From IMG/VR virus record IMGVR_UViG_2579779052_000011: 31,774 nucleotides of DNA, one strand, 5' to 3'. The translations under genes and the position numbers were made by a program. Shown one piece after another: positions 7,427 to 31,774 of this stretch; position 1 is the stretch's first letter, and each line of letters starts with the position of its first letter. The stretch is from a virus. Its lineage: Duplodnaviria; Heunggongvirae; Uroviricota; Caudoviricetes. The notes beneath the pieces are model-generated. The model saw only the letters and a list, made by a program, of their open reading frames with translations, did no database searches and was not told the DNA's origin.

Positions 7427-7465
7427 ATCACCTTTACGTTTGTACATGTAAGGGTGATTTTTTTA
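7427..7465 (+). terminator. Rho-independent terminator or attenuator after the peptidase gene
   Basis: 10-bp stem (AUCACCUUUA / UAAGGGUGAU, one G-U pair) followed by a run of 7 T; ends at the start codon of the next ORF. Confidence 0.6.
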
Positions 7466-8064: not shown

Positions 8065-8106
8065 AGCATTAGTTGTGATTTTTTATTGGTTTTAGTGATA
8101 ATACAT

Positions 8107-8139
8107 CTCCAGTACTTATTGTTACTGGAGAGTATTTTT
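8107..8139 (+). terminator. Rho-independent terminator between convergent cargo genes
   Basis: Perfect 8-bp stem CTCCAGTA...TACTGGAG followed by AGTATTTTTA. Confidence 0.6.
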
Positions 8140-8146
8140 AGTCGTT

Positions 8147-9088
8147 TTATATTTTTAATGTTAGTGAATGATATTCACGAGAGTTCACGTTCGATGTGAT
8201 GTAATCGGGGGCGTTAACACCAAGAATCGCAACGAGTAATCGGCAAATTAAAGCCTGCATTTGTTGTAATATGTCATCTCCATATTGATAATTGTTAATA
8301 GTGGTAAAGCCAAGTGGTTGACCATGAAACATAGCTTCATGAAAGTTTTCATTGCGGATGTTTGTAATGTTTTTTTTGCCTGTAACCCATGATGGTCGTG
8401 GTATTCCATAAGTTTTGCAGATCCACTTCAAGCGCCTGGAGTGATTTAGAGTCTTTTCTGTACACTTGTTCTTTTCTGCCCATGTTAAAGCAAAGCAACT
8501 ATCCAGTGCCATATAAAGATACTGGAATTTTTCGAAGCTAAGGTATTGTGGGTTTTGGGATAAAAATAGTGCATGCACTATTGCTGCTATATTTATTGGT
8601 GCGTGTTTGGTTTTTGTCTCGCTAGACATGTATTTGAGTGCTAATTCTATAACCTCTTTTTCAGAGCACTTGACCAGAATAAAGTCAGTTAATTTGCTAG
8701 GTTTTATTGGGGTTGCGTCTAAAAAACCGGCATCAGTAGTTGTTAATCTTATCCCTTTGAAAAAAGACAGACACCACACAGCAAAATTGAGAGTTTCTAG
8801 TGAAGATGTATTTTTTAATTTTAGTGAGTGTGTTTTGGGTAAGCCAAATACTCGTTGGCTAAAAGGCATTGTGGATATGCCTCCATTGAGGTTATATACT
8901 TCTTGGTTTCCTGGGTATATCCAACCGTTAATAACATTTCTGTGATTGTTTATAAGATTTGTTTTTTCCGCTAGACCGGGTAAAGTAAGTAAAGAAAAAT
9001 CATCAGTTTCAACGTTAACTTCTACTGGATAGTATCCAAACTCAGCTTCAATATCATTGGATTGCTGTTCGTCAACTTTACCTTGCAT
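8147..9088 (-). CDS. Hypothetical 313-aa protein in the old/tin hotspot; possible HEPN-like Rx4H motif; candidate defence effector
   Basis: AT-rich ORF with GGAG RBS 8 nt upstream; occupies the cos-proximal slot where P2 has old; C-terminal IRNENFHEAMFHG motif. Confidence 0.6.
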   Translation of the reverse strand: MQGKVDEQQSNDIEAEFGYYPVEVNVETDDFSLLTLPGLAEKTNLINNHRNVINGWIYPGNQEVYNLNGGISTMPFSQRVFGLPKTHSLKLKNTSSLETLNFAVWCLSFFKGIRLTTTDAGFLDATPIKPSKLTDFILVKCSEKEVIELALKYMSSETKTKHAPINIAAIVHALFLSQNPQYLSFEKFQYLYMALDSCFALTWAEKNKCTEKTLNHSRRLKWICKTYGIPRPSWVTGKKNITNIRNENFHEAMFHGQPLGFTTINNYQYGDDILQQMQALICRLLVAILGVNAPDYITSNVNSREYHSLTLKI

Positions 9089-9200
9089 ACATTGCTCCGG
9101 TCAAAAATAGGCTCGATAATTCTCGTAAGCCTATCATGTTCGCAAAGTATCCATACCTGTGGATTTTGTAAATTTAAGTTGATTTGTCATTAAATAAGCC

Positions 9201-9212
9201 GTTGCATGCAAC
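9201..9212. repeat. Perfect 12-bp palindrome GTTGCATGCAAC upstream of the 313-aa gene
   Basis: Direct reading; lies in the promoter region of the minus-strand cargo gene. Confidence 0.5.
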
Positions 9213-9326
9213 AAGTGAATGTTTTTGCATGCGTCGGGGATGTCCGTTCAGGCTGCGTGCGGTCAGGACTGGTGCGGATCCATAGTATCTATGCAACTGC
9301 ATTAAAACTGCCCCATGAAGCGGGCG

Positions 9327-9345
9327 GGCGAGGCGGGGAAAGCAC
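9327..9345. other. cos: cos site (19-nt cohesive end GGCGAGGCGGGGAAAGCAC)
   Basis: Exact match to the P2 cohesive-end sequence as I recall it; located immediately upstream of Q as in P2. Confidence 0.8.
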
Positions 9346-9488
9346 TGCGCGCTGGCGGTGGTGCTGATTTTATTTTTTCAGCGTCTGAGCGCGTCTTGAT
9401 GGCGTTTAGATTGTGCGCCGGGGCGTTGGTGTGTCTGCGGGGTATTTTGTGCGGTGGTGAGCGTGTGAGGGCGTGATGACGGGGTGTA

Positions 9489-9512
9489 AAAAAGCCGCCC
9501 GCAGGCGGCGAT
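9489..9512 (-). terminator. Terminator downstream of Q (minus strand)
   Basis: GCCGCC-CGCA-GGCGGC hairpin followed by a T6 run on the minus strand, just past the Q stop. Confidence 0.6.
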
Positions 9513-9514
9513 GT

Positions 9515-10549
9515 TCAGCCGTTGTCAGTGTCCAGTGAGTAGTTTTTAAAGCGGATGACCTCCTGGCCGAGCCAGCCGTTTATTTCCCGAATCCTGTCCT
9601 GTAACGGGATAAGTTCATTGCGGACAAAGACCTTTGCCACTTTCTCAATATCACCCAGCGACCCGACGTTCTCCGGCTTGCCGCCCATCAACTGAAAGGG
9701 GATGCGGTGCGCGTCCAGCAGGTCAGCGGCGCTGGCTTTTTTGATATTAAAAAAATCGTCCTTCGTTGCCACTTCACTGAGCGGGATAATTTTAATACCG
9801 TCGGCTTTCCCCTGCGGGGCATAGAGAAACAGATTTTTAAAGTTGTTGCGGCCTTTCGACTTGACCATGTTTTCGCGAAGCATTTCGATATCGTTGCGAT
9901 CCTGCACGGCATCAGTGACGTACATGATGTATCCGGCATGTGCGCCATTTTCGTAATACTTGCGGCGGAACAGCGTGGCCGACTCATTCAGCCAGGCAGA
10001 GTTAAGGGCGCTGAGATATTCCGGCAGGCCGTACAGCTCCTGATTAATATCCGGCTCCAGCAGGTGAAACACGGAGCCGGGCGCGAAGGCTGTCGGCTCG
10101 TTGAAGGACGGCGCCCACCAGTAAACATCCTCTTCCACACCACGGCGGGGATATTTTGCCGGTGAGGTTTCCAGTCTGATGACCTTACCGGTGGTGCTGT
10201 AACGCTTTTCCAGAAACGCATTACCGAACACCAGAAAATCCAGCACAAAGCGGCTGAAATCCTGCTGGGAAAGCCACGGATGCGGGATAAATGTTGAGGC
10301 CAGAATATTACGTTTGACGTAAATCGGTGAGCTGTGATGCACGGCAGCACGCAGGCTTTTTGCCAGACCGGTAAAGCTGACCGGTGGTTCATACCATCTG
10401 CCGTTACTGATGCACTCGACGTAATCCAGAATGTCACGGCGGTCGAGTACCGGTACCGGCTCGCCAAAGGTGAATGCCTCCATTTTCGGGGTGCTGGCGG
10501 TCATTTTTTTTGCCGCAGGTTGCGGTGTTTTCCCTTTTTTCTTGCTCAT
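9515..10549 (-). CDS. Q: Portal protein, P2 gpQ-like
   Basis: 344-aa ORF, same length as P2 Q; N-terminal lysine-rich region; adjacent to cos. Confidence 0.9.
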   Translation of the reverse strand: MSKKKGKTPQPAAKKMTASTPKMEAFTFGEPVPVLDRRDILDYVECISNGRWYEPPVSFTGLAKSLRAAVHHSSPIYVKRNILASTFIPHPWLSQQDFSRFVLDFLVFGNAFLEKRYSTTGKVIRLETSPAKYPRRGVEEDVYWWAPSFNEPTAFAPGSVFHLLEPDINQELYGLPEYLSALNSAWLNESATLFRRKYYENGAHAGYIMYVTDAVQDRNDIEMLRENMVKSKGRNNFKNLFLYAPQGKADGIKIIPLSEVATKDDFFNIKKASAADLLDAHRIPFQLMGGKPENVGSLGDIEKVAKVFVRNELIPLQDRIREINGWLGQEVIRFKNYSLDTDNG

Positions 10550-12321
10550 CAGTAAAACTCCAGAATGGTGGATGTCAGCGGAGTGCTGATACCCGCGGTG
10601 AGTGGCTCATTTAACAGGGCGTGCATGGTCGCCCAGGCGAGGTCGGCGTGGCTGGCTTCCTCGCTGCGGCTGGCCTCATAGGTGGCGCTGCGTCCGCTGC
10701 TGGTCATGGTCTTGCGGATAGCCATAAACGAGCTGGTGATGTCGGTGGCGCTGACGTCATATTCCAGACAGCCACGGCGAATAACGTCTTTTGCCTTGAG
10801 CACCATTGCGGTTTTCATTTCCGGCGTGTAGCGGATATCGCGCGCGGCGGGATAGAACGAGCGAACGAGCTGGAACACGCCGACACCGAGGCCGGTGGCA
10901 TCAATTCCGATGTATTCGACGTTGTATTTTTCGGTGAGTTTGCGGATGGATTCAGCCTGGGTGGCAAAGTCCATGCCTTTCCACTGGTGACGCTCAAGTA
11001 TTCTGAATTTGCCACCGGCCACCACCGGCGGTGCCAGCACCACGCATCCGGCACTGTCGCCACGGTGTGACGGGTCGTAACCAATCCAGACCGGGCGGGA
11101 GCCGAACGGATTGGCGGCAAACGGCGCATAGTCTTCCCATTCTTCCAGCGTGTCGACCATGCAGCGTTGCAGCTCCTCGAACGGGAATACCGACGCCTTG
11201 TCGTCAACAAATTCACACATGAACAGGTTTTTAAAATCGTCGGCGCTGTTTTCGCGTTTAAGCTGCTCAATGTCGAACAGCGTGCAGCCACCTTTCAGGG
11301 CGTCCTCAATGGTGACAATCTGCCGCCACTGGCCGTCCGCACAGAGAAACCCACCGGCAAGGGCGTTATGACTGACGTCGATTTCCACGCGTTCGGCGGC
11401 GCTGGCGCGTCCCCGGTTGAACAGTTCACCCGACCAGAACGGGTAGGCGTCGTGCGCCAGCGTGGACGGGGTGGAGAAATAGGTCGAGCGCAGGTGACTC
11501 TGTGAGGCCATACCTGATGCCACCTTACGCAGTACCTGAAAATTCGGGATCCAGAAAATCTCGTCGACGTACAGGTCGCCGTTATGGCTCTGTGCGGTGT
11601 TGGAGTTGGTGCCGAGAAAAATCAGTTTTGCGCCGTTATTGCCCAGGACAATCGGGTCACCGGTCAGGTCAACGTCAACCAGACGGGCAAAGGCGATGAT
11701 GTATTCGCGGAACACATACGCCTGCGTTTTACTGGCCGACAGAAAAATCTGGTTATGACCGGTTTTCAGGGCGCGCAGCAGCGCCTCGCGGGAAAAATAA
11801 AACGTCGCGCCAATCTGGCGGGATTTCAGGATATCGCGGATGCGGTGCTCAAGCCCGGCGCGATACCAGTGCAACTGATATTCGAAAGACTGCTCAAAGA
11901 AAATCTGCTCCAGCTTTTCGATGGCCTCGTCGCTGAAAAAATTCTTTTTCGGTTTGCGTCGCCCGCCTTTGTTGCGGTTAGCGACGTTCGGATTAAGGTC
12001 TGCCTCGTTGCCGGTCTGACTGTAGCGGTTTACCCGTGCCAGTCGTTCAATCTGGCGTCCCAGCAGGTCAATTTCCTTGAAGTCACCGCCGGTTTTCTGC
12101 GGTTTGATGATGAGCTGGGTCAGTCGCGCTTCCAGACTCATTTCGACACGGCTGATGGGGGCAACGCTGTCCCAGCCGTCGCGCTGTTTCCAGCTCTGCA
12201 CCGTCGGACGTTTCATCTGCAACATGGCGGCAATCTGCGGCACGGAAAACCCCTGCCAGTACAGCAGCGCCGCCTGACGACGCGGGTCGTGTAAAAGAGT
12301 GGTGTCTGTGGTGATGGTCAT
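10549..12321 (-). CDS. P: Terminase large (ATPase) subunit, P2 gpP-like
   Basis: Start taken at the internal ATG at 12321 (MTITTD..., GAGG RBS), giving 590 aa; stop overlaps the Q start. Confidence 0.9.
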   Translation of the reverse strand: MTITTDTTLLHDPRRQAALLYWQGFSVPQIAAMLQMKRPTVQSWKQRDGWDSVAPISRVEMSLEARLTQLIIKPQKTGGDFKEIDLLGRQIERLARVNRYSQTGNEADLNPNVANRNKGGRRKPKKNFFSDEAIEKLEQIFFEQSFEYQLHWYRAGLEHRIRDILKSRQIGATFYFSREALLRALKTGHNQIFLSASKTQAYVFREYIIAFARLVDVDLTGDPIVLGNNGAKLIFLGTNSNTAQSHNGDLYVDEIFWIPNFQVLRKVASGMASQSHLRSTYFSTPSTLAHDAYPFWSGELFNRGRASAAERVEIDVSHNALAGGFLCADGQWRQIVTIEDALKGGCTLFDIEQLKRENSADDFKNLFMCEFVDDKASVFPFEELQRCMVDTLEEWEDYAPFAANPFGSRPVWIGYDPSHRGDSAGCVVLAPPVVAGGKFRILERHQWKGMDFATQAESIRKLTEKYNVEYIGIDATGLGVGVFQLVRSFYPAARDIRYTPEMKTAMVLKAKDVIRRGCLEYDVSATDITSSFMAIRKTMTSSGRSATYEASRSEEASHADLAWATMHALLNEPLTAGISTPLTSTILEFY

Positions 12322-12494
12322 GAATACCTCGCCGTGATGAATACACGGCAAGGCTACTGAGTCGCGCCCCGCGATTCGCTAAGGTGCTGTTGTGTCAGTG
12401 ATAAGCCATCCGGGACTGATGGCGGAGGATGCGCATCGTCGGGAAACTGATGCCGACATGTGACTCCTCTAATCACTATTCAGGACTCCTGACA
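12322..12494. promoter_or_regulatory. Divergent late promoter region between P and O (Ogr-dependent in P2)
   Basis: Intergenic region between divergently transcribed P and O; no motif confirmed. Confidence 0.5.
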
Positions 12495-20654: not shown

Positions 20655-21258
20655 TTCGCGCCTGCTGCCGACCGGCTCATCACCGCTTGAAGTTGCCGCC
20701 GCAAAAGCCTGTGCGGAAATTGAAAAAACGCCGGTCAGTATTCGTGAGCTGTGGAACCCGGATACCTGTCCGGCAAATCTGCTGCCGTGGCTGGCGTGGT
20801 CATTTTCGGTTGACCGCTGGGATGATAAGTGGCCGGAAGCGACAAAACGCGCTGTTATCCGCGATGCGTATTTCATTCACTGCCATAAGGGCACTATTGG
20901 TGCGATTCGCCGTGTGGTGGAGCCGCTCGGCTATCTGATTGAGGTGAGGGAGTGGTGGCAGCTCAACGAGGAGCCGGGGACGTTCCGCATCGTTGTTGGC
21001 GTGCTTGAGCAGGGTATTACCGAGGAAATGTATCAGGAGCTGGAGCGTCTCGTTGCTGATGCAAAACCTGCAAGCCGCCATCTGACGGGACTGGCTATCA
21101 GTTTAAGTACAACCGGCAACATTTTTGCCGGTGCGGGATGCTATCACGGCGACGCCCTGACGGTTTATCCCTACACCCCGGAGGCCATTATTGTCGGAGG
21201 GGATTATTTCCCGGCCTCGGCCATTCATTTAATTGATAACCTGAGAGTAAACGCATGA
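20647..21258 (+). CDS. I: Baseplate protein, P2 gpI-like
   Basis: 203-aa ORF overlapping the J stop; longer than the length I recall for P2 I. Confidence 0.8.
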
Positions 21259-22454
21259 CAGTGAAATACTACGCCATTCTGACTAATCAGGGCGCGGCAC
21301 GGCTGGCTAACGCGACGATGCTCGGCAGTAAGCTGAATCTGACGCAAATGGCCGTTGGTGATGCAAATGGTGTCTTGCCGACACCAGACCCGGCACAGAC
21401 AAAACTTATTAACCAGAAACGCATCGCGCCGCTGAATCTTCTGAGTGTTGACCCGAACAACCAGAGCCAGATTATTGCGGAGCAAATCATCCCTGAGAAC
21501 GAGGGCGGATTCTGGATCCGTGAGATTGGGCTTTATGATGATGAAGGCGTACTCATTGCGGTGGCGAACTGCCCGGAAACGTACAAACCGCAGTTGCAGG
21601 AAGGCAGTGGTCGTACCCAGACTATCCGCATGATTCTGGTTGTCACGAATACCGAAGCTATCACGCTGAAAATCGACCCGTCGGTGGTACTGGCGACCCG
21701 TAAATACGTGGATGATGAAGTCCTGGAATTAAGGCTGTATGTGGATGACCAAATGAGAAACCACATTGCCGCACAGGACCCTCATACCCAGTATGCACAG
21801 AAACATAATCCGACATTTACCGGAGAACCAAAAGCGCCGACGCCTGCCGCAGGAAATAACACCACGCGGATTGCGACCACTGAGTTTGTTCAGGCCGCTA
21901 TTACCGCTCTGATTAACGGTGCGCCAGCCACGCTGGACACACTGAAAGAAATTGCCGCAGCCATTAACAATGACCCGAAATTCAGTACCACCATTAACAA
22001 TGCGCTGTCAGGTAAGCAGCCACGGGACAATACGCTGACTAATTTGAGTGGAAAGGATGTAGCTGGTCTTCTCGCATACCTTGGTTTGGGAGAAGCGGCA
22101 AAACGGGGGGTGGGAACAGGGGAAAATCAGATACCGGACATGGCTTCATTTAGTGGGGTGAGGGATTATTACGGAAAACAACTTTTGCCAGGAGGGTTGA
22201 TACTTCAGTGGCTGACGATTCCATCAAGTGCAGCAGCCAAAGCTGTAACACTGAATAATGGTAATTATCAGCTGTCAGGCTATAAATGGCCCCAGTCATT
22301 TGGTGTCCTGTTTGCTGTGTTTGCTACAAAAGTTTCTGGCTCGACTAACGAAGCATATGCAATCTCAGTTAATCGTCACTCTACCGATGTAATTGTCACC
22401 TGGAATGCCCGTAAGGCTGATGATGTCCACATTTTAGGAATTGGGAAATTATGA
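21255..22454 (+). CDS. H: Tail fibre protein (H-like conserved N-terminus plus a variable C-terminal domain encoded inside the invertible segment)
   Basis: 399-aa ORF; the part after about 22082 lies inside the invertible segment. Confidence 0.85.
22069..22094. other. Putative invertase crossover site, left (gix/hix-like)
   Basis: TTCTCGCATACC-TT-GGTTTGGGAGAA inside the H coding sequence; inverted partner at 23655-23680. Confidence 0.5.
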
Positions 22455-22870
22455 AAATGAAATGGTCCCCATCTGTTCAGGGATTTTTCTCTGAAAATAA
22501 CAGCGATATTCCCGATGATGCTTTCGATATTGAAGATGCTCTTTATTATGAACTTATGAATGGTCAGAGTACGGGGAAAATTATTATCAATAACCCGGAT
22601 AACTACCCTGTACTTACTGAATATCCAGCGAAGACACAGGAACAGGAAATAGCTGAAGCGGAGGGAATGAAAAGTATACTTATTGAACAGGCCAACGAAT
22701 ACATGAACAGTAAGCAATGGCCTGGTAAAGCCGCTATTGGTCGTCTGAAAGGTGAGGAACTGGCGCAATATAATTTGTGGCTGGATTATCTGGACGCACT
22801 GGAACTGGTTGATACCTCCAGTGCTCCAGATATTGAATGGCCTACGCCTCCGGCAGTTCAGGCCAGATGA
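22451..22870 (+). CDS. Tail fibre assembly chaperone (currently expressed orientation)
   Basis: 139-aa ORF immediately after H; C-terminus ...[11 protein letters not shown] resembles the Tfa family. Confidence 0.8.
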
Positions 22871-23273
22871 CATCCGGCGCAGGGGAAGTATCTACCGCTT
22901 CCAATTTCTTGGCATAACTCCGCCAGGCTATGAGCCTGGCTTTATCTGCATCGCTGATAATTCCGAGCAGTAAATCAGTCTGCCATTCACGAACAGCTTC
23001 CGCAGATTCGGCCATTAGCTGCGCTTTTTGGTTTTCTGCCTCCTGCACTGCGATAGCGTGAAGCTCATCATCTGTTGGAGGCGGAATATCTTCCCACGCA
23101 GGCAAACCATCAGCACCCGGCACACGTCGCTTCCCGTCGTTTTCTCCGATAAAAAATTCTGCAAAAATCTCGTTCGAAACAGGGACGGCATCAGTAAATG
23201 CGTCTGTTTTCAGTAAAGTACTTCCTGCAGCAATGAACACATTCTTTTTTGCGCTGTAATAGTAACTGGTCAT
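22842..23273 (-). CDS. Alternative tail fibre assembly chaperone (inverted orientation)
   Basis: 143-aa ORF, convergent and overlapping the plus-strand tfa by 29 bp; similar C-terminus ...[10 protein letters not shown]. Confidence 0.75.
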   Translation of the reverse strand: MTSYYYSAKKNVFIAAGSTLLKTDAFTDAVPVSNEIFAEFFIGENDGKRRVPGADGLPAWEDIPPPTDDELHAIAVQEAENQKAQLMAESAEAVREWQTDLLLGIISDADKARLIAWRSYAKKLEAVDTSPAPDVIWPELPEA

Positions 23274-23708
23274 TTACACTCTCCCTACGGCAATCCAGTG
23301 CGCCGTTGCTGAGCCGCCCTTGAACGTTTTATCTGCTCCCTGCCACCAGATCGAGCGGAACCCGAAAGAGGTTGTTCCCAGCGATTGAGCACCATAGATC
23401 ACTAACCCTGAGTACACGTTCCCGGACGAAACCCAGTTCGACACCGCAGATTCCCCCGTCAGAACGCTATAGAAACTCATCGCAAGGCCAAGGTTCACGG
23501 TCGCAAATCCATTTGCATCTGTAGACACCTTACCGCCCTGAATAACAATGCCTCCCGGCAGTTGCATCACAAAGGCATTAACGTTGCCTGTAACTGTGAA
23601 TGATGACATATCCGGCACTTGGCCCGTTCCGGTTCCAACATCTTTTTTGGCTGCTGTTCCTAAACCAACGTTTAAGAAAATGCAGAGATTACGGCTAACT
23701 GGCATCAT
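23274..23708 (-). CDS. Alternative tail-fibre C-terminal (receptor-binding) domain, silent in this orientation
   Basis: 144-aa ORF whose N-terminal region (GLGTAAKKDVGTGTGQVPDMSSF) parallels H residues [23 protein letters not shown]; no promoter of its own. Confidence 0.7.
   Translation of the reverse strand: MMPVSRNLCIFLNVGLGTAAKKDVGTGTGQVPDMSSFTVTGNVNAFVMQLPGGIVIQGGKVSTDANGFATVNLGLAMSFYSVLTGESAVSNWVSSGNVYSGLVIYGAQSLGTTSFGFRSIWWQGADKTFKGGSATAHWIAVGRV
23655..23680. other. Putative invertase crossover site, right (gix/hix-like)
   Basis: Reverse complement reads TTTTCTTAAACG-TT-GGTTTAGGAACA, matching the left site in the core and right half. Confidence 0.5.
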
Positions 23709-23735
23709 CCCCGGTTTTTATTCAGGGGATCCATC

Positions 23736-24329
23736 ATGCTTATTGGCTATGTCCGCGTGTCAACAAATGACCAGAATACGGAATTGCAGCGTAACGCGCT
23801 GGAGTGTGCAGGATGTGAGCTGATTTTTGAGGATAAAATCAGCGGCACGAAGTCCGACAGGCCGGGACTGAAAAAACTGCTCAGGACATTATCGGAGGGG
23901 GATACACTGGTAGTCTGGAAGCTGGACCGGCTGGGGCGTAGTATGCGGCATCTGGTTATTCTGGTTGAGGAGCTGCGCGAACGCGGCATTAATTTTCGCA
24001 GCCTGACGGATGCCATTGATACCAGCACGCCGATGGGACGTTTTTTCTTTCATGTGATGGGTGCCCTGGCTGAAATGGAACGAGAACTCATTGTCGAGCG
24101 GACTCGCGCCGGACTGGAAGCGGCCAGAGCCAAAGGTCGTATTGGTGGCAGACGTCCGAAGCTCACCGCGAGTGAGTGGGAACAGGCAGGACGGTTGCTG
24201 GCTGCGGGTGAATCACGTCAACGCGTGGCGCTGATTTTTGATATTGGCCTGTCCACGCTCTATAAAAAATTCCCCTCATCAGCGACAAAGAATAAATTGT
24301 GTCATCCCTTAGCCAACCGGGACAAATAG
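23736..24329 (+). CDS. Serine recombinase / DNA invertase (Hin/Gin/Cin/Pin family)
   Basis: 197-aa ORF with the resolvase N-terminal motif (GYVRVST, catalytic Ser) and a C-terminal HTH; adjacent to the invertible fibre segment. Confidence 0.9.
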   Translation: MLIGYVRVSTNDQNTELQRNALECAGCELIFEDKISGTKSDRPGLKKLLRTLSEGDTLVVWKLDRLGRSMRHLVILVEELRERGINFRSLTDAIDTSTPMGRFFFHVMGALAEMERELIVERTRAGLEAARAKGRIGGRRPKLTASEWEQAGRLLAAGESRQRVALIFDIGLSTLYKKFPSSATKNKLCHPLANRDK

Positions 24330-24388
24330 CCTGACATCTCCGGCACAACTGAAAATACCACTCACCCATTAACCACGGAGTTAAACGG

Positions 24389-25579
24389 ATGAGTGACTAT
24401 CATCACGGCGTGCAGGTGCTGGAGATTAACGACGGCACCCGCGTCATTTCCACCGTATCCACTGCCATTGTCGGCATGGTCTGTACGGCCAGCGATGCGG
24501 ATGCGGAAACCTTCCCCCTCAATAAACCGGTGCTGATTACCAATGTGCAGAGCGCAATTGCAAAGGCCGGTAAAAAAGGCACGCTGGCGGCATCGTTGCA
24601 GGCCATCGCTGACCAGTCAAAACCGGTTACCGTTGTCGTGCGTGTTGAAGACGGCACCGGCGACGACGAAGAAACGAAACTCGCGCAGACCGTTTCCAAT
24701 ATCATCGGCACCACTGACGAAAACGGTCAGTATACCGGACTGAAAGCCCTGCTGGCGGCAGAGTCGGTAACCGGTGTTAAACCGCGTATTCTCGGCGTGC
24801 CGGGACTGGACACCAAAGAGGTGGCTGTTGCACTGGCATCAGTCTGTCAGAAGCTGCGCGCTTTCGGGTATATCAGCGCATGGGGCTGTAAAACCATTTC
24901 CGAGGTGAAAGCCTACCGCCAGAATTTCAGCCAGCGTGAGCTGATGGTCATCTGGCCGGATTTCCTCGCATGGGATACGGTCAGCAGCACCACCGCCACC
25001 GCGTATGCCACCGCCCGTGCGCTGGGTCTGCGCGCTAAAATCGACCAGGAGCAGGGCTGGCATAAAACGCTGTCCAATGTCGGGGTAAACGGTGTTACCG
25101 GCATCAGTGCCTCTGTATTCTGGGATTTGCAGGAGTCCGGCACTGATGCTGACCTGTTGAACGAGTCAGGTGTCACAACGCTGATTCGCCGTGACGGTTT
25201 CCGCTTCTGGGGTAACCGTACCTGCTCTGATGACCCGCTGTTCCTCTTTGAAAACTACACCCGCACCGCGCAGGTGCTGGCCGACACGATGGCTGAGGCG
25301 CACATGTGGGCTGTGGACAAGCCCATCACTGCAACGCTGATTCGCGACATCGTTGACGGCATCAATGCCAAATTCCGTGAGCTGAAAACAAACGGCTATA
25401 TTGTGGATGCGACCTGCTGGTTCAGCGAAGAATCCAACGATGCGGAAACCCTCAAGGCCGGAAAACTGTATATCGACTACGACTATACACCGGTGCCTCC
25501 TCTTGAAAACCTGACCCTGCGCCAGCGTATTACCGATAAATACCTGGCAAATCTGGTCACCTCGGTTAACAGCAATTAA
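24389..25579 (+). CDS. FI: Tail sheath protein, P2 gpFI-like
   Basis: 396-aa ORF. Confidence 0.9.
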   Translation: MSDYHHGVQVLEINDGTRVISTVSTAIVGMVCTASDADAETFPLNKPVLITNVQSAIAKAGKKGTLAASLQAIADQSKPVTVVVRVEDGTGDDEETKLAQTVSNIIGTTDENGQYTGLKALLAAESVTGVKPRILGVPGLDTKEVAVALASVCQKLRAFGYISAWGCKTISEVKAYRQNFSQRELMVIWPDFLAWDTVSSTTATAYATARALGLRAKIDQEQGWHKTLSNVGVNGVTGISASVFWDLQESGTDADLLNESGVTTLIRRDGFRFWGNRTCSDDPLFLFENYTRTAQVLADTMAEAHMWAVDKPITATLIRDIVDGINAKFRELKTNGYIVDATCWFSEESNDAETLKAGKLYIDYDYTPVPPLENLTLRQRITDKYLANLVTSVNSN

Positions 25580-25591
25580 GGAGCCTGACCG

Positions 25592-26110
25592 ATGGCAATG
25601 CCGCGCAAACTCAAGTTAATGAACGTCTTTCTGAACGGCTACAGCTATCAGGGCGTCGCGAAGTCCGTCACGCTGCCAAAACTGACCCGTAAGCTCGAAA
25701 ACTATCGCGGTGCGGGGATGAACGGCAGCGCACCGGTAGACCTCGGCCTTGATGACGATGCGCTGTCAATGGAGTGGTCGCTCGGTGGCTTCCCGGATTC
25801 GGTTATCTGGGAGCTTTACGCCGCAACCGGTGTGGATGCCGTACCGATTCGTTTTGCAGGCTCTTACCAGCGCGACGATACCGGCGAAACGGTGGCCGTC
25901 GAGGTGGTCATGCGTGGACGTCAGAAAGAAATCGACACCGGCGAGGGCAAACAGGGAGAAGACACCGAGTCGAAAATCTCCGTGGTCTGCACCTATTTCC
26001 GGCTGACGATGGACGGTAAGGAGCTGGTCGAAATCGACACCATCAACATGATTGAGAAGGTGAACGGCGTCGACCGGCTGGAGCAACACCGCCGCAATAT
26101 CGGCCTGTGA
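25592..26110 (+). CDS. FII: Tail tube protein, P2 gpFII-like
   Basis: 172-aa ORF. Confidence 0.9.
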   Translation: MAMPRKLKLMNVFLNGYSYQGVAKSVTLPKLTRKLENYRGAGMNGSAPVDLGLDDDALSMEWSLGGFPDSVIWELYAATGVDAVPIRFAGSYQRDDTGETVAVEVVMRGRQKEIDTGEGKQGEDTESKISVVCTYFRLTMDGKELVEIDTINMIEKVNGVDRLEQHRRNIGL

Positions 26111-26166
26111 TTTTCATCCGGTTAGCCTGGCTGACCGGTTAACCCCGATTCAGAAGTGAGAAAACC

Positions 26167-26442
26167 ATGAACAAAGAAAACGTCATTACCCTGGACAATC
26201 CGGTCAAACGTGGTGAGCAGGTTATCGAACAGATCACGCTGATGAAACCCAATGCCGGGACGCTGCGCGGTGTCAGTCTGGCTGCAGTCGCGAACTCCGA
26301 AGTCGATGCACTGATTAAAGTGCTGCCGCGCATGACGGCACCGATGCTGACCGAGCAGGAAGTCGCCGCGCTGGAACTGCCTGACCTTGTGGCGCTGGCC
26401 GGTAAGGTGGTCGGTTTTTTGTCGCCGAACTCGGTGCAGTGA
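26167..26442 (+). CDS. E: Tail assembly chaperone, P2 gpE-like
   Basis: 91-aa ORF upstream of the tape measure gene. Confidence 0.85.
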   Translation: MNKENVITLDNPVKRGEQVIEQITLMKPNAGTLRGVSLAAVANSEVDALIKVLPRMTAPMLTEQEVAALELPDLVALAGKVVGFLSPNSVQ

Positions 26443-26594
26443 CGTTTCCGAAAAATCTCTCGGTCGATGACCTGATGGCGGATGTGGCAGTGATATTTCA
26501 CTGGCCGCCATCAGAACTGTATCCCATGAGCCTGACCGAACTCATCACATGGCGCGAAAAGGCGCTCCGGCGAAGCGGAAACACGAATGAGTAA
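26167..26594 (+). CDS. Tail assembly chaperone E+E' made by programmed -1 frameshift
   Basis: Slippery GGTTTTTTG at 26413-26421; the -1 frame stays open to TAA at 26592-26594 and overlaps the T start. Confidence 0.7.
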
Positions 26595-29034
26595 CAATGT
26601 AAAATTACAGGTATTGCTCAGGGCTGTTGACCAGGCATCCCGCCCGTTTAAATCCATCCGCACAGCGAGCAAATCGCTGTCGGGGGATATCCGGGAAACA
26701 CAAAAATCACTGCGCGAGCTGAACGGTCAGGCATCCCGTATTGAGGGATTTCGCAAGACCAGTGCACAGCTCGCCGTGACTGGTCATGCACTTGAAAAGG
26801 CTCGACAGGAAGCCGAAGCCCTTGCCACACAGTTTAAAAACACCGAACGTCCGACCCGTGCTCAGGCGAAAGTGCTGGAATCCGCAAAGCGTGCGGCGGA
26901 GGACTTACAGGCGAAATATAACCGCCTGACGGATTCCGTTAAACGCCAGCAGCGGGAACTGGCCGCTGTGGGAATTAATACCCGCAATCTTGCACATGAT
27001 GAGCAGGGACTGAAAAACCGTATCAGTGAAACCACTGCCCAGCTTAACCGGCAGCGTGACGCGCTGGCGCGTGTCAGTGCGCAACAGGCAAAACTTAACG
27101 CAGTCAAACAGCGTTATCAGGCCGGCAAGGAACTGGCCGGAAATATGGCCTCAGTGGGCGCTGCCGGTGTGGGGATTGCGGCGGCGGGAACGATGGCCGG
27201 AGTTAAGCTGCTGATGCCCGGTTATGAGTTTGCGCAGAAAAACTCAGAATTACAGGCTGTGCTCGGAGTGGCAAAAGACTCCGCCGAAATGGCCGCGCTC
27301 CGCAAACAGGCGCGCCAGCTCGGCGACAACACCGCCGCCTCGGCGGATGATGCAGCCGGTGCGCAGATTATCATTGCAAAAGCCGGTGGGGATGTTGATG
27401 CCATTCAGGCGGCAACGCCGGTCACGCTGAATATGGCGCTGGCGAACCGTCGCACGATGGAAGAAAACGCCGCCCTGTTGATGGGGATGAAATCCGCCTT
27501 TCAGCTTTCAAACGATAAGGTCGCTCATATCGGGGATGTTCTCTCCATGACGATGAACAAAACCGCCGCCGATTTTGACGGCATGAGCGATGCGCTGACC
27601 TATGCCGCACCTGTGGCAAAAAATGCCGGTGTCAGCATTGAAGAAACCGCCGCAATGGTCGGGGCGCTGCATGATGCAAAAATCACAGGCTCAATGGCGG
27701 GGACGGGAAGCCGTGCCGTGTTAAGTCGCCTGCAGGCACCGACGGGAAAAGCATGGGATGCACTCAAAGAGCTTGGAGTGAAAACCTCAGACAGCAAGGG
27801 GAATACCCGACCAATATTTACCATTCTGAAAGAAATGCAGGCCAGTTTTGAGAAAAACCGGCTCGGTACTGCCCAGCAGGCTGAATACATGAAAACCATT
27901 TTCGGTGAGGAGGCCAGTTCAGCAGCCGCCGTGCTGATGACTGCCGCCTCAACCGGAAAGCTGGACAAACTGACCGCTGCGTTTAAAGCCTCAGACGGGA
28001 AGACCGCAGAGCTGGTAAATATCATGCAGGACAACCTCGGCGGTGACTTTAAGGAGTTTCAGTCCGCTTATGAGGCGGTGGGGACTGACCTGTTTGACCA
28101 GCAGGAAGGCGCACTACGTAAGCTCACGCAGACGGCCACAAAGTATGTGTTAAAACTCGACGGCTGGATCCAGAAAAACAAATCACTGGCGTCAACCATT
28201 GGCCTCATTGCCGGTGGCGCGCTGGCGCTGATTGGCATCATCGGTACAATTGGTCTTGTAGCCTGGCCGGTTATCACCGGCATCAATGCCATCATCGCGG
28301 CAGCAGGCGCAATGGGGGCAATCTTCACGACGGTTGGCAGTGCTGTTATGACCGCCATCGGGGCTATTAGCTGGCCGGTTGTGGCTGTGGTGGCTGCCAT
28401 TGTCGCCGGGGCGTTGCTTATCCGTAAATACTGGGAGCCTGTCAGCGCATTCTTTGGCGGTGTGGTTGAAGGGCTGAAAGTGGCATTTGCGCCGGTGGGG
28501 GAACTGTTCACGCCACTTAAGCCGGTGTTTGACTGGCTGGGTGAAAAGTTACAGGCCGCGTGGCAGTGGTTTAAAAACCTGATTGCCCCGGTCAAAGCCA
28601 CTCAGGACACCCTGAACCGTTGCCGTGACACGGGGGTCATGTTCGGGCAGGCACTGGCTGACGCGCTGATGCTGCCGCTTAATGCGTTCAACAAACTGCG
28701 CAGTGGTATTGACTGGGTACTGGAAAAACTCGGTGTTATCAACAAAGAGTCAGACACACTTGACCAGACCGCCACCAGAACTCAAGCCGCCACGTATGGC
28801 AGCGGTGGTTATATTCCGGCGACCAGCTCTTATGCAGGCTATCAGGCTTATCAGCCGGTCACGGCACCGGCTGGCCGCTCTTATGTGGACCAGAGTAAAA
28901 ACGAATATCACATCAGCCTGACGGGTGGCACTGCGCCGGGGACACAGCTTGACCGCCAGTTACAGGATGCGCTCGAAAAATACGAGCGGGATAAACGTGC
29001 GCGCGCTCGTGCCAGCATGATGCATGACGGTTAA
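26587..29034 (+). CDS. T: Tail tape measure protein, P2 gpT-like
   Basis: 815-aa ORF with a coiled-coil N-terminus and Gly/Ala-rich hydrophobic region. Confidence 0.9.
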   Translation: MSNNVKLQVLLRAVDQASRPFKSIRTASKSLSGDIRETQKSLRELNGQASRIEGFRKTSAQLAVTGHALEKARQEAEALATQFKNTERPTRAQAKVLESAKRAAEDLQAKYNRLTDSVKRQQRELAAVGINTRNLAHDEQGLKNRISETTAQLNRQRDALARVSAQQAKLNAVKQRYQAGKELAGNMASVGAAGVGIAAAGTMAGVKLLMPGYEFAQKNSELQAVLGVAKDSAEMAALRKQARQLGDNTAASADDAAGAQIIIAKAGGDVDAIQAATPVTLNMALANRRTMEENAALLMGMKSAFQLSNDKVAHIGDVLSMTMNKTAADFDGMSDALTYAAPVAKNAGVSIEETAAMVGALHDAKITGSMAGTGSRAVLSRLQAPTGKAWDALKELGVKTSDSKGNTRPIFTILKEMQASFEKNRLGTAQQAEYMKTIFGEEASSAAAVLMTAASTGKLDKLTAAFKASDGKTAELVNIMQDNLGGDFKEFQSAYEAVGTDLFDQQEGALRKLTQTATKYVLKLDGWIQKNKSLASTIGLIAGGALALIGIIGTIGLVAWPVITGINAIIAAAGAMGAIFTTVGSAVMTAIGAISWPVVAVVAAIVAGALLIRKYWEPVSAFFGGVVEGLKVAFAPVGELFTPLKPVFDWLGEKLQAAWQWFKNLIAPVKATQDTLNRCRDTGVMFGQALADALMLPLNAFNKLRSGIDWVLEKLGVINKESDTLDQTATRTQAATYGSGGYIPATSSYAGYQAYQPVTAPAGRSYVDQSKNEYHISLTGGTAPGTQLDRQLQDALEKYERDKRARARASMMHDG

Positions 29035-29048
29035 GGAGGTGACGAAAA

Positions 29049-29528
29049 ATGATGCTCGCGTTAGGTATGTTTGTTTTTATGCGCCAGACGCTGCCACACC
29101 AGACCATGCAGCGTGAATCAGATTATCGCTGGCCGTCAAATTCCCGTATCGGTAAACGGGACGCTTTTCAGTTTCTCGGTGTGGGTGAGGAAAACATCAC
29201 GCTGGCCGGTGTGCTTTATCCCGAACTGACCGGCGGCAAGCTGACGATGACCACGCTCAGGCTGATGGCAGAGGAGGGGCGGGCGTGGCCGTTGCTGGAT
29301 GGCACCGGCATGATTTACGGCATGTATGTCATCAGCAGGGTGAGTGAAACAGGGAGTATTTTCTTTGCAGACGGCACACCCAGGAAAATTGATTTTACGC
29401 TGTCACTCACCCGCGTTGATGAATCACTGGCCGCGCTTTATGGCGATATCGGTAAACAGGCGGAATCGCTCATCGGTAAGGCCGGCAGTATGGCGACCAG
29501 ATTCACAGGTATGACGGGGGCGGGATAA
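29049..29528 (+). CDS. U: Tail protein, P2 gpU-like
   Basis: 159-aa ORF. Confidence 0.85.
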   Translation: MMLALGMFVFMRQTLPHQTMQRESDYRWPSNSRIGKRDAFQFLGVGEENITLAGVLYPELTGGKLTMTTLRLMAEEGRAWPLLDGTGMIYGMYVISRVSETGSIFFADGTPRKIDFTLSLTRVDESLAALYGDIGKQAESLIGKAGSMATRFTGMTGAG

Positions 29529-30691
29529 TGCTGGATGCGCTGACATTTGATGCAGGCAGTACGCTGACGCCGGATTACATGCTGATGCTCGACAGCAGGG
29601 ATATTACCGGCAATATCAGCGACCGTCTGATGAGCATGACCCTGACGGATAACCGGGGCTTTGAGGCTGACCAGCTTGATATTGAACTGAACGATGCCGA
29701 CGGGCAGGTCGGGCTGCCGGTTCGTGGCGCTGTCCTGACGGTGTATATCGGCTGGAAAGGTTTTGCCCTGGTATGCAAAGGGAAATTTACCGTTGATGAG
29801 GTTGAACACCGGGGCGCACCGGATGTAGTCACCATCCGCGCCCGGAGTGCAGATTTTCGCGGGACGCTCAATTCCCGCCGGGAAGGCTCCTGGCATGACA
29901 CCACGCTCGGTGCGATTGTTAAGGCGATAGCCACCCGTAACAGGCTGGAAGCCAGTGTCGCTCCGTCACTGGCCGGAATAAAAATTCCACACATCGACCA
30001 GTCGCAGGAGTCTGATGCAAAATTCCTGACCCGCCTTGCTGAACGCAACGGCGGTGAGGTGTCGGTAAAAATGGGAAAATTGTTGTTTCTCAAAGCGGGG
30101 CAGGGGGTGACGGCCAGCGGTAAAAAAATCCCGCAGATTACCATCACCCGCAGCGACGGCGACCGTCATCATTTTGCGATTGCTGACCGTGGAGCTTACA
30201 CCGGCGTAACGGCAAAGTGGTTACATACCAAAGACCCGAAGCCGCAAAAGCAGAAGGTAAAACTGAAACGCAAAAAGAAAGAAAAACACCTGCGCGCACT
30301 GGAGCACCCGAAAGCGAAACCGGTCACGCAGAAGAAAGCGCCAAAAGTACCGGAAGCGCGCGAAGGTGAATACATGGCCGGTGAGGCTGACAACGTTTTT
30401 GCCCTGACCACGGTATATGCCACGAAAGCGCAGGCCATGCGCGCCGCTCAGGCGAAGTGGGATAAACTGCAACGGGGTGTAGCGGAGTTCTCCATCAGCC
30501 TGGCTACCGGTCGGGCAGATATTTACACGGAAACACCGGTCAAAGTGTCAGGCTTTAAGCGTGTCATAGACGAGCAGGACTGGACAATCACTAAGGTGAC
30601 ACATTTTCTGAATAATAGCGGCTTCACGACGTCCTTAGAGCTTGAGGTAAGGCTTTCTGATGTGGAGTACGAAACCGAAGATGATGAGTGA
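29528..30691 (+). CDS. D: Late control / tail protein, P2 gpD-like
   Basis: 387-aa ORF. Confidence 0.9.
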   Translation: MLDALTFDAGSTLTPDYMLMLDSRDITGNISDRLMSMTLTDNRGFEADQLDIELNDADGQVGLPVRGAVLTVYIGWKGFALVCKGKFTVDEVEHRGAPDVVTIRARSADFRGTLNSRREGSWHDTTLGAIVKAIATRNRLEASVAPSLAGIKIPHIDQSQESDAKFLTRLAERNGGEVSVKMGKLLFLKAGQGVTASGKKIPQITITRSDGDRHHFAIADRGAYTGVTAKWLHTKDPKPQKQKVKLKRKKKEKHLRALEHPKAKPVTQKKAPKVPEAREGEYMAGEADNVFALTTVYATKAQAMRAAQAKWDKLQRGVAEFSISLATGRADIYTETPVKVSGFKRVIDEQDWTITKVTHFLNNSGFTTSLELEVRLSDVEYETEDDE

Positions 30692-30773
30692 TGTGTTTTA
30701 TTTTATCTGTTTGTTTTATAAGGATAAATTAACTAAAATGGCAACATCAACAAAACCGGAAGAGGTGCTCGCG

Positions 30774-30992
30774 ATGTTTCATTGTCCTTTATGCCAGCAT
30801 GCCGCACATGCGCGTACAAGTCGCTATATCACTGACACGACAAAAGAGCGTTATCACCAGTGCCAGAACGTGAATTGCAGCGCCACGTTCATCACTTATG
30901 AGTCGGTACAGCGATACATCGTGAAGCCGGGAGAAGTCCACGCCGTGAGGCCGCACCCGTTGCCGTCAGGGCAGCAAATTATGTGGATGTAA
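30774..30992 (+). CDS. ogr: Zinc-finger late gene transcription activator Ogr
   Basis: 72 aa from the ATG at 30774 (MFHCPLCQH...CQNVNC...), GGAAGAGG RBS; the listed longer ORF starts upstream. Confidence 0.9.
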   Translation: MFHCPLCQHAAHARTSRYITDTTKERYHQCQNVNCSATFITYESVQRYIVKPGEVHAVRPHPLPSGQQIMWM

Positions 30993-31001
30993 TTACAAAC
31001 A

Positions 31002-31034
31002 GAAAGCCCCTCAGTCGAGGGGCTTTCTGTTTTG
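31002..31034 (+). terminator. Rho-independent terminator after ogr
   Basis: AAAGCCCCTC-AGTC-GAGGGGCTTT hairpin followed by CTGTTTT. Confidence 0.8.
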
Positions 31035-31132
31035 GGGAATATTCTTCATTAAAAGTAGTGGATCACGTTTAATAAACTATGTTTATCATATACTTAAAAG
31101 TAACTTTTTAAAGTTGGACAGGTTGGTGGAAA

Positions 31133-31774
31133 ATGGAAAAAGTTATAATTGAGCTTGATAATCGTTGGGAGTTAGCTGATTTCGCGGTCTTAACGAAAGA
31201 GTATTTGCAGCTATATGGTTTTTTTTATGGCCTAAAAGGAGGATCAAGAGGATATTCAACAATGCCTTGGGAGGGTGGGCACAGTGTAGTGAACTTTTTT
31301 AGAGGGGCTTACAGTGCGACTCCACCAGATTTACGTCCTGTAGTGAAAAAAATTCAGTATGCCTCTCCTGGCTTTATTGAATTGTCTGCTCTTATTGATA
31401 TCTCTTGGCAGATTGCTGAGTTAGTTACTGCTGTTGGTGGAAGTATTCTGGCTGCCAACAAAGTTTACGATCAGGTGATGCGTACATATCGACAAAGAGA
31501 ATGGGCAAAGTTGAAATCAGAGAAGCTGCGTATACAGAATCAAATTAAAGAGATTGAACTTGTTTCTGACGCAGTTAAATCACTTGAATCTGTGATGGCA
31601 CTTAGTGAAGAACAACGTAAAAACTTGGTTCAACTATCGGGGGCAGATGAACTGGTTCAGTTAAAGATACTTTTGGCTGTTTACCGACGGTTATCTCCTC
31701 TTGTTGAGTTGCAAAACAGCGGGAAAGCTAATTTTTCTGCAGGGAAAAATAAAAATTTAAAAGCGTCCGATTAA
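31133..31774 (+). CDS. Hypothetical 213-aa protein, AT-rich, beyond the ogr end of the prophage
   Basis: Complete ORF (ATG to TAA at the window end) with GGTGGA RBS; C-terminal half looks coiled-coil; no homolog recognised. Confidence 0.55.
   Translation: MEKVIIELDNRWELADFAVLTKEYLQLYGFFYGLKGGSRGYSTMPWEGGHSVVNFFRGAYSATPPDLRPVVKKIQYASPGFIELSALIDISWQIAELVTAVGGSILAANKVYDQVMRTYRQREWAKLKSEKLRIQNQIKEIELVSDAVKSLESVMALSEEQRKNLVQLSGADELVQLKILLAVYRRLSPLVELQNSGKANFSAGKNKNLKASD

Follow-up and report, generated by a model that had tools for sequence, protein, structure and literature searches.

The P2-like (Peduovirus) prophage described here very probably carries a site-specific inversion switch of the Pin/Cin/Gin type that exchanges the receptor-binding end of its tail fibre. 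Within the 31,774-bp stretch of DNA analysed (referred to here as the window), fibre gene H and sheath gene FI are separated by a segment that is bounded by two inverted 26-bp sites, contains two alternative fibre C-termini with a chaperone gene each, and is adjoined by a gene for a serine DNA invertase (Table 1). The evidence consists of the anatomy of the locus, the family membership of the enzyme and its sites, and the occurrence of both orientations, with precisely exchanged half-sites, in homologous loci.

Locus architecture in a P2-like backbone

The gene order of the window is that of a P2-like phage (Peduoviridae), with int, gpA, Q/P, baseplate genes V-W-J-I, H, FI-FII-E-T-U-D, and ogr. 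Pfam matches in the window are to Tail_P2_I, Phage_GPA, Ogr_Delta, and integrase, and its best phage matches belong to Peduovirus. The prophage is apparently complete. In the P2 reference, the gene that immediately precedes the pF promoter and FI is fun(Z). BLAST alignment to P2 shows homology resuming at window position 24309 (96.8% nucleotide identity), from pF and FI onward, and from ∼24300 the window is near-identical to the pF activator site and promoter of P2; this region forms the right edge of the cargo insertion. The original prediction had placed a 1.6-kb segment where P2 carries G and Z/fun, a description borne out by the 1,588-bp segment that precedes the return of P2 homology. The ORF map and Pfam likewise recover all of the elements that it had listed (H, two convergent chaperone genes, a silent fibre C-terminus on the opposite strand, and an adjacent invertase gene of the Hin/Gin family), each where it had placed them.

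Table 1. Features of the inversion locus, in window coordinates.
Feature	Coordinates	Strand	Details
Fibre gene H ORF	21255-22454	+	399 aa, PF12571
Constant N-terminal part of H, outside the segment	21255-22080	+	275 codons
Left site L (pix/cix-like)	22069-22094	+	TTCTCGCATACC-TT-GGTTTGGGAGAA; core TT 22081-22082
Invertible segment	22081-23668		1,588 bp, including both core dinucleotides
Variable fibre C-terminus A, currently fused to H	22083-22454	+	∼124 aa
Tail-fibre assembly chaperone, cassette A	22451-22870	+	139 aa, PF02413 Caudo_TAP
Tail-fibre assembly chaperone, cassette B	22842-23273	-	143 aa, PF02413 Caudo_TAP
Silent fibre C-terminus B	23274-23666	-	∼131 aa; start-less ORF 23274-23708
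Right site R	23655-23680	-	minus-strand reading TTTTCTTAAACG-TT-GGTTTAGGAACA; core 23667-23668
Pin/Gin/Cin-family serine DNA invertase	23736-24329	+	197 aa, Resolvase + HTH_7; just outside the segment
Predicted recombinational (Fis) enhancer, 5' end of invertase gene	23754-23825	+	P1 homology
P2 pF late-promoter region, right edge of cargo insertion	24300-24388	+	P2 alignment

Alternative fibre ends and their chaperones

The N-terminal 150 residues of H are covered by PF12571 (Phage_tail_fib; E = 1e-62), and up to the left site the gene is 97 to 98% identical at the nucleotide level to the H genes of three related loci (L001, L002, and L012). C-terminus A matches the C-terminal end of phrog_2557 (positions 413 to 534; E = 3e-33) and recurs in dozens of E. 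coli genomes (98 to 99.9% identity), in some attached to H and in others silent beside an invertase gene. The GC content of the A half of the segment is 0.44, compared to 0.52 for the window. C-terminus B, which has neither a fibre N-terminus nor a promoter of its own, aligns, like A, to the C-terminal region of phrog_2557 (E = 5e-11) and also matches phrog_1396; it is 51% identical to A over the first 45 amino acids and unrelated over the remainder. In two homologous loci, L003 and L004, B forms the C-terminal end of annotated full-length fibres of 480 aa, and chaperone B follows directly 3' of the H-B fusion in the expressed position.

Both chaperones belong to PF02413, with E values of 6e-24 for A (which also matches phrog_188 at 2e-51) and 4e-28 for B. 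They are 28% identical to each other, and their convergent ORFs overlap by 29 nucleotides. Cassette B is rare, occurring in 2 of 5,426 complete E. coli genomes, and among phage records none covers more than 12% of it.

Inverting positions 22081 to 23668 in silico at the central TT yields an uninterrupted H of 406 aa that ends in C-terminus B. As had been proposed, the core TT falls at codon positions 2 and 3 in both fibre frames. The locus thus has the layout of a tail-fibre switching cassette of the Mu-G/P1-C/e14-P type, in which the constant part lies outside the segment, two C-termini with their own chaperones lie convergently inside it, and the reading frame is kept upon inversion.

The invertase

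The invertase contains a Resolvase domain (PF00239; E = 3e-52) and an HTH_7 domain (PF02796; E = 1e-12) and is 86% identical to PinE, 79% to Cin, and 78.5% to Gin. It matches the Gin structure 3UJ3 with an E value of 1e-94 versus 9e-33 for gamma-delta resolvase, and the catalytic Ser9 is present in a motif, VRVSTNDQ, that aligns to Gin. Residues of Hin that contact Fis or the enhancer, which are specific to invertases and absent from resolvases, are the K47/R48/K51 basic patch and Q151, R154, and L155 (PMC3798978). With the Hin numbering offset (-1) taken from the 1HCR alignment, the window invertase has the equivalent residues K46/K47/R50 and Q150/R153/L154. In a public assembly collection, 1,859 blocks list exactly this protein.

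The C-terminal tail of the enzyme is 13 aa longer than that of e14 PinE and extends into the P2 pF promoter, the late-promoter region overlapping the last ∼30 nucleotides of the ORF. This extended 3' end also overlaps the Ogr-activator site of the late pF promoter, an arrangement that could couple transcription of the invertase gene with late gene activation. A scan for sigma-70 promoters and terminators returned nothing above the shuffle background that would help place the invertase promoter, and no sigma-70-like site directly upstream of the gene.

Recombination sites

When R is reverse-complemented, sites L and R match at 18 of 26 positions. Because an inverted match of this quality is weak by itself, not being beyond chance within a few kilobases, the window was scanned with the invertase-site family consensus, TCNNAAACCWWGGTTTNNGA, allowing up to 2 mismatches; significance was gauged from the expected count and from 100 shuffles. 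Exactly two matches, sites L and R, were found in the 31,774 bp, where 0.03 would be expected, and none of the 100 shuffled windows contained two. A general repeat search of the window did not report the pair, the longest exact seed being 7 to 8 nucleotides. We also considered a third site, as in a shufflon, and rejected it, as only two sites are present at ≤7 substitutions or by consensus.

The two sites are imperfectly palindromic and inverted, and their cores read TT in like sense, as in cix and pix; the core of gix is TC. Site L is identical in L001, L002, and L012. Its outer half stays with H, and its inner half travels with cassette A. On the invertase side, the outer half-site of R, TTTTC(A/T)TAAACG, is common to e14 pixR and all related loci. 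The left (CATACC) and right (AAACG) outer half-sites each depart by one base from the AAACC consensus. These deviations are probably tolerated, since the former also occurs in P1 cixR and the latter in e14 pixR.

Both orientations in related loci

Two E. coli prophages (L003 and L004, in 100416 and CUWW06) carry positions 22078 to 23671 of the window inverted with respect to H and the invertase gene, with 99.8% and 99.7% of positions identical. Their flanks are only 69 to 81% identical to the window, and homology stops within 3 nucleotides of each core. The composite sites of these loci, joining the H-outer to the B-inner half and the invertase-outer to the A-inner half, are exactly the predicted recombinants and place the exchange within site positions 13 to 19. 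The predicted flipped right junction occurs at full length in 26 E. coli genomes. These swapped half-sites support the original prediction that the 26-bp sites are the inversion junctions.

Other pairs of loci differ in the same manner. The right flanks of L001 and L012 are 100% identical while the 1,881-bp middle is inverted, and their invertase is identical to that of the window at 196 of 197 positions (99.5%). L016 and L019, both encoding the window-identical invertase, differ by an inversion with the inner half-sites swapped. Finally, the sole difference between two assemblies of E. coli ATCC 8739 is the inversion of the homologous segment between flanks that are 100% identical.

The only near-identical public record of the window is L009, an IMG/VR contig (99.97% identity), and the two have the same orientation. 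Exact-pattern searches of IMG/VR, GTDB species representatives, and JGI metagenomes did not recover the flipped left junction of the window lineage, and a relaxed left-junction pattern retrieved L009 only, oriented as in the window. No complete E. coli genome contains the window backbone with this A/B pair.

Predicted enhancer and proposed mechanism

A Fis-bound enhancer is predicted in cis within the 5' end of the invertase gene, the location in which the original prediction had suggested one might be found. This assignment is based on homology to the annotated P1 enhancer (cin nucleotides 19 to 90), to which the region aligns gaplessly with 56 of 72 positions identical. The Fis consensus, KNNYRNNWNNYRNNM, is matched at 23758 to 23772 and 23806 to 23820 (invertase nucleotides 23 to 37 and 71 to 85), with centres 48 bp apart, and gin, cin, and three prophage invertases share such a conserved pair with the window. 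Because these matches fall in codons for the conserved catalytic motif, the fact that they are conserved does not independently support an enhancer function. The distance between the proximal Fis site and the right core is 97.5 bp in the window, compared to 96.5 bp in Mu and e14; in hin, enhancer and site are ∼100 bp apart (PMC3798978).

By analogy with the Hin/Gin paradigm, invertase dimers would bind both inverted sites and synapse at the Fis-bound enhancer in the first ∼90 bp of the invertase gene, followed by staggered cuts at the central TT, a 180-degree rotation, and religation. We infer that the window copy flips in this way and that it requires Fis. As the segment now lies, the late operon expresses H-A (399 aa) together with chaperone A, and a flip would replace them with H-B (406 aa) and chaperone B. 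A lysate would then contain two adsorption specificities, each fibre end presumably determining the receptors recognised.

Alternative explanations

That the window and L009 are found in one orientation only could mean that the locus descends from a switch but no longer inverts, owing to poor expression of the invertase or to drift of the sites, and is locked in H-A. Consistent with such a history, degraded relatives (L017 and L021) retain an identical invertase after loss of the left site and H or insertion of an IS, and the window invertase lacks a recognizable sigma-70-like promoter directly upstream. However, its ORF is intact and encodes a protein 100% identical to that from loci in both orientations, and both sites are identical to, or 1 nucleotide off, those of loci seen in both states. 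Moreover, because an assembly records the majority orientation only, two matching records are uninformative, and we regard a frozen copy as improbable. It is somewhat harder still to credit that the main targets of the invertase are invertible loci elsewhere in the host, reached in trans, with the local segment as a secondary substrate. Gin, Cin, Pin, and Hin are known to complement each other, and several such loci are often present in one E. coli genome (median of 2 and maximum of 12 places per genome matching this kind of locus). The gene nevertheless occupies the canonical cis position, with its predicted enhancer ∼97 bp from its own site, and any action in trans would add to local inversion rather than replace it.

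A third reading concerns the loci on which the case for inversion depends, whose opposite orientations might reflect homologous recombination, cassette replacement, or assembly error instead of recombination at the proposed sites. Short inverted repeats can indeed be mis-assembled, and cassettes do get exchanged in other ways: what L001 has in common with the window is the A half only, with a breakpoint at ∼22893 in the conserved 3' overlap of the chaperone genes. Such processes fit poorly with breakpoints that lie ≤3 nucleotides from the core in independent pairs and with half-sites that are swapped precisely. The exact identity of the repeats, ∼7 to 13 bp, is too little for RecA-dependent inversion, and identity reaches 100% in the flanks of the ATCC 8739 pair and in the right flank of L001 and L012. 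In homologous systems, coexisting variants have also been confirmed by PCR or read mapping (PMC4272514). We therefore attach almost no probability to this reading and retain the site-specific inversion switch as the preferred explanation.

Implications

The minus-strand "hypothetical protein" at 23274 to 23708 can be annotated as the silent half of a tail-fibre gene, and two host-range states should be assigned to the prophage. In phage typing, phage therapy, and tailocin engineering, cassette B represents a rare receptor-binding module with its cognate chaperone. Mechanistically, the locus offers nothing new, being a textbook-type serine-invertase switch in a cargo hotspot, Z/fun, that is well known from P2-like phages.

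More tentatively, the crossover sites may double as portable module boundaries. This suggestion, which we consider possible but doubtful, derives from an A/B segment that is 99.8% identical across two peduovirus lineages, between flanks of 69 to 81% identity, with homology ending ≤3 nucleotides from the cores. If it is correct, the invertase would not only flip the segment locally but also mediate intermolecular exchange, passing complete receptor-binding cassettes horizontally from one co-resident phage to another. Discussion of intermolecular cassette exchange in the Min/Cin systems goes back to the 1990s.

Comparison with known inversion systems

The original prediction had likened the locus to the Mu G segment. 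The logic is indeed the same, in that Mu combines Sc with Sv/U or Sv'/U', gin adjoins the silent end, and the enhancer lies in the 5' end of gin, as predicted for the window; Gin structures (3UJ3 and 4M6F) are available. The G segment, however, measures 3 kb rather than 1.6 kb, its gix sites are perfect 34-bp repeats with a TC core (17 to 18 of 26 positions match the window sites), and the variable parts of its fibre and chaperone are unrelated to those of the window. "Mu-like" was therefore rejected as the best label in favor of Pin/Cin-like on the basis of core dinucleotide, half-sites, and protein identity (86% to PinE), and these sequence comparisons place e14 Pin/pix and P1 Cin/cix nearest to the window system.

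P1 cixR, TTATCCAATACC-TT-GGTTTAAGAGAA, is identical to site L at 21 of 26 positions by eye, with the ATACC deviation in both. P1 belongs to a different phage family, and its C segment is 4.2 kb long, compared to 1.6 kb in the window. Its cin gene lies on the other side, with the 3' end abutting cixL and the enhancer ∼500 bp from the site.

The e14 P-segment of E. coli K-12 (stfP/ycfK-tfaP, tfaE-stfE', and pinE) has a gene layout identical to that of the window: a constant fibre part, a C-terminus with its Tfa, a convergent Tfa with a silent C-terminus, and the invertase. The TT core is common to both, and the invertase-side half-site reads TTTTCATAAACG in e14 versus TTTTCTTAAACG in the window. 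The two differ in kind, e14 being a defective remnant of lambdoid type and the window prophage being P2-like and apparently complete. The cassettes differ as well, with only ∼180 bp of the chaperone 3' end, the sites, and the invertase being alignable.

Such switches are already known from P2-like phages, in which they are not unusual. A survey of P2-like phages noted that an invertase is common in the Z/fun hotspot (bioRxiv 10.1101/2024.10.15.618418), and a switch is annotated in the deposited genome of phage pro483, whose invertase is 97.5% identical to that of the window. Inversion with coexisting variants has been shown in two P2-like prophages of EPEC E2348/69, as well as in e14 (PMC4272514). 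One EPEC locus is a shufflon with three sites, whereas the window has two. Overall, the invertible loci of the EPEC E2348/69 prophages, pro483 (KR073661), "P2" of O157:H43 T22 (KC618326), and the ATCC 8739 prophage share with the window both the Z/fun position between H and FI and the architecture, and only the combination of cassettes differs.

Organization of the fiber locus

An essentially complete P2-like (Peduovirus) prophage makes up the window; its baseplate genes, H, FI, and the remaining tail operon were all found. Where phage P2 has the order H, G, the cargo gene fun(Z), the pF promoter, and FI, the window instead carries a set of fiber, chaperone, and recombinase genes. The original prediction had placed this set at the position of G and Z/fun, and both the open reading frame (ORF) map and the resumption of P2 homology (96.8%) at 24309, within the pF activator-binding region, confirm that placement. 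Since P2 homology is back at ~24300-24309, the cargo insertion stops exactly at the late promoter. The invertase ORF (197 aa; stop codon at 24327-24329) shares its final ~30 nt with the homologue of the P2 pF Ogr-activator binding site. In 186-like backbones (loci L003 and L005), the invertases are 188 aa long and are without the C-terminal tail seen in the window.

Features of the prophage and its fiber locus, in window coordinates
Feature	Coordinates	Strand	Description
Integrase	1-1011	-
gpA	3457-5775
Q/P	9515-12351	-
H	21255-22454	+	399 aa, PF12571
Site L	22069-22094		TTCTCGCATACC-TT-GGTTTGGGAGAA
Chaperone A	22451-22870	+	139 aa, Caudo_TAP
Chaperone B	22842-23273	-	143 aa, Caudo_TAP
Start-less fiber C-terminus	23274-23666	-	within ORF 23274-23708
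Site R	23655-23680	read on -	TTTTCTTAAACG-TT-GGTTTAGGAACA
Serine recombinase	23736-24329	+	197 aa, Resolvase + HTH_7
Fis-consensus matches	23758-23772 and 23806-23820
Sheath FI	24389-25579	+
ogr	30660-30992

The two fiber C-termini (A, currently fused to H, and B, silent) hit the C-terminal end of one and the same PHROG fiber family; they share 51% identity over the first 45 residues and are unrelated thereafter. Their chaperones are 28% identical. Cassette B is rare, occurring in 2 of 5,426 complete E. coli genomes, and was not found in the phage collection searched. The GC content of cassette A is 0.44, versus 0.52 for the window; in 300-bp windows it is 0.39-0.45 across 22100-22850 (cassette A), ~0.50 in cassette B, and 0.52-0.60 in the backbone. 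The low GC content of cassette A relative to the backbone and cassette B points to different origins for the two receptor-binding modules.

Other cargo lies between gpA and Q (6913-9088), in the hotspot equivalent to that of old/tin. There, ORF 6913-7398 (+) encodes an M78/IrrE-type peptidase (PADLOC capP match, E = 1e-30), and ORFs 7465-8064 (+) and 8147-9088 (-) had no match in Pfam or PADLOC. Past ogr, ORF 31133-31774 matches the PADLOC defense protein PD-T4-10_B (E = 1e-34; profile positions 139-346 of 353). Its stop codon is the end of the window and also of an IMG/VR contig, L009 (IMGVR_UViG_2585427760_000015), positions 1-11079 of which correspond to window 20695-31774, down to the same end base; the window probably comes from that contig's assembly or a sister one.

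Recombination sites

Sites L and R match at 18 of 26 positions, a similarity that is not significant alone, and a generic repeat search of the window missed the pair. When the 31.8 kb were scanned with the invertase-site-family consensus TCNNAAACCWWGGTTTNNGA (≤2 mismatches), the two inverted 26-bp sites put forward in the original prediction were the sole matches, against 0.03 expected; no third site was present in the window. The core TT does occupy codon positions 2-3 in both frames, as had been claimed, and in silico inversion of 22081-23668 yielded the anticipated in-frame fusion, an unbroken 406-aa H with the alternative C-terminus.

Sites for comparison were taken from the actual Mu, P1, and e14 records. 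Mu gix (TTATCCAAAACC-TC-GGTTTACAGGAA) has a TC core, whereas the window core is TT, as in P1 cixR (TTATCCAATACC-TT-GGTTTAAGAGAA), P1 cixL (CAATCCTAAACC-TT-GGTTTAAGAGAA), and the e14 pix sites (CTCTCGAAAACC-TT-GGTTTGGGAGAA and TTTTCATAAACG-TT-GGTTTGGGAGAA). An invertase-side half-site ending in ACG is common to the window's sites and e14 pixR. Judged by this comparison, the window sites are of the pix/cix type, closer to those of e14 and P1 than to Mu gix.

Orientation and exchange of the segment

Four independent comparisons among homologous loci agree that the proposed sites are the junctions and that such loci flip. In L003 (E. coli 100416) and L004 (CUWW06), the segment at window 22078-23671 is present at 99.8% and 99.7% identity, respectively, but lies in the opposite orientation with respect to H and the invertase. 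Their sites, TTCTCGCATACC-TT-GGTTTAGGAACA and TTTTCTTAAACG-TT-GGTTTGGGAGAA, are exactly the composites expected from core exchange, which places the crossover within site positions 13-19. L001 (E6474) and L012 (WP8-S18-CRE-02) share a 100% identical right flank of 2,247 bp, including an invertase matching the window's at 196 of 197 residues; between the two loci, the 1,881-bp middle portion is 99.15% identical and lies in opposite orientations. As part of this second comparison, of loci with the same or nearly the same invertase, L016 and L019, with an invertase protein 100% identical to the window's, differ by inversion, their inner half-sites being swapped. The third comparison is within a single strain, E. 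coli ATCC 8739, for which two independent assemblies (NC_010468 and NZ_CP033020) agree at 100% in the flanks and carry the homologous segment in opposite orientations; the cassettes of this segment include one with 98.4% identity to cassette A, and the junction ends overlap by 25 bp, at the 26-bp sites.

In the fourth comparison, 26 complete E. coli genomes proved to contain the entire length of the predicted postinversion right junction, with cassette A next to the invertase (best match, 96.5%). This exact prophage has a single orientation in both of its records, the window and the 99.97%-identical L009, and exact searches of IMG/VR, GTDB species representatives, and JGI metagenomes for the flipped junction of the window lineage were negative. 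Coexisting orientations have been shown experimentally for e14 and two P2-like prophages of EPEC E2348/69 (Goldberg et al. 2014, PMC4272514), and a DNA invertase with inversion of neighboring genes is frequent at the Z/fun hotspot of P2-like phages (2024 survey, bioRxiv 10.1101/2024.10.15.618418).

Because the segment is 99.7-99.8% identical to L003/L004 4080-5673 while the flanks (baseplate, H, invertase, and sheath DNA) reach just 69-81%, with homology stopping ≤3 nt from the crossover cores, the comparison suggests that the segment moved horizontally as a unit; to judge from these sequences, diverged peduoviruses have evidently exchanged it with the cores as its boundaries. Exchange of half-cassettes is seen as well: in L001 the breakpoint lies near 22893, where the 3' ends of the chaperone genes form a conserved overlap. 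Two E. coli assemblies (L017, 2394-4000; L021, 2545-4000) retain the identical invertase and the right site and have lost H and the left site; L017 also has an IS-type transposase (rve/DDE). Both are decayed and presumably locked versions of the switch.

Invertase and predicted enhancer

The recombinase adjoining the segment belongs, as anticipated, to the Hin/Gin family: it shares 86% of its residues with PinE, 79% with Cin, and 78.5% with Gin, retains the catalytic Ser9, and matches Gin crystal structures at E = 1e-94, compared with only 9e-33 for gamma-delta resolvase. In the public assembly collection, 1,859 blocks list this protein. It has the basic patch K46/K47/R50 (Hin 47/48/51) and Q150/R153/L154 (Hin 151/154/155), positions uniquely conserved in Fis-dependent invertases (McLean et al., PMC3798978).

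An enhancer had been suggested as something to look for in the 5' end of the invertase gene, and homology predicts one there. The Cin enhancer is annotated in the P1 record at cin nt 19-90, a stretch that aligns ungapped with the window gene at 56 of 72 positions (whole gene, ~69-70%). Two matches to KNNYRNNWNNYRNNM, the Hübner-Arber Fis consensus, occur with centers 48 bp apart at nt 23-37 and 71-85 of the window gene and likewise of gin, cin, and three prophage invertases. A distance of 97.5 bp separates the proximal Fis site from the right core, compared with 96.5 bp in Mu and e14 and ~100 bp for hin (PMC3798978). Since the same bases also encode a conserved catalytic motif, the enhancer stands as a prediction from homology.

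Proposed switch and relation to known systems

The locus is very probably best explained as an invertible switch of the H fiber end, driven by the invertase acting at sites L and R. Invertase dimers bound to the two sites would join the Fis-bound enhancer within the invertase gene, and the TT cores would be cut, rotated by 180 degrees, and religated. H would thus alternate between H-A with chaperone A (the present state) and H-B with chaperone B, giving mixed progeny with two adsorption specificities. We infer both the Fis dependence and the receptors recognized by A and B.

The observation is confirmed and its interpretation supported, for a switch system that is already known. Its distinctive features are minor: the rarity of cassette B, the low GC content of cassette A, exchange as a unit, and the invertase 3' end lying over the pF activator site. 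At the sequence level, the locus has every feature that marks membership in the Hin/Gin/Cin/Pin invertase systems and in the Mu-G/P1-C/e14-P type of fiber cassette. It is most closely related to e14 Pin and to the invertible loci already annotated in P2-like phages (pro483, 'P2' of O157:H43 T22, and numerous E. coli prophages).
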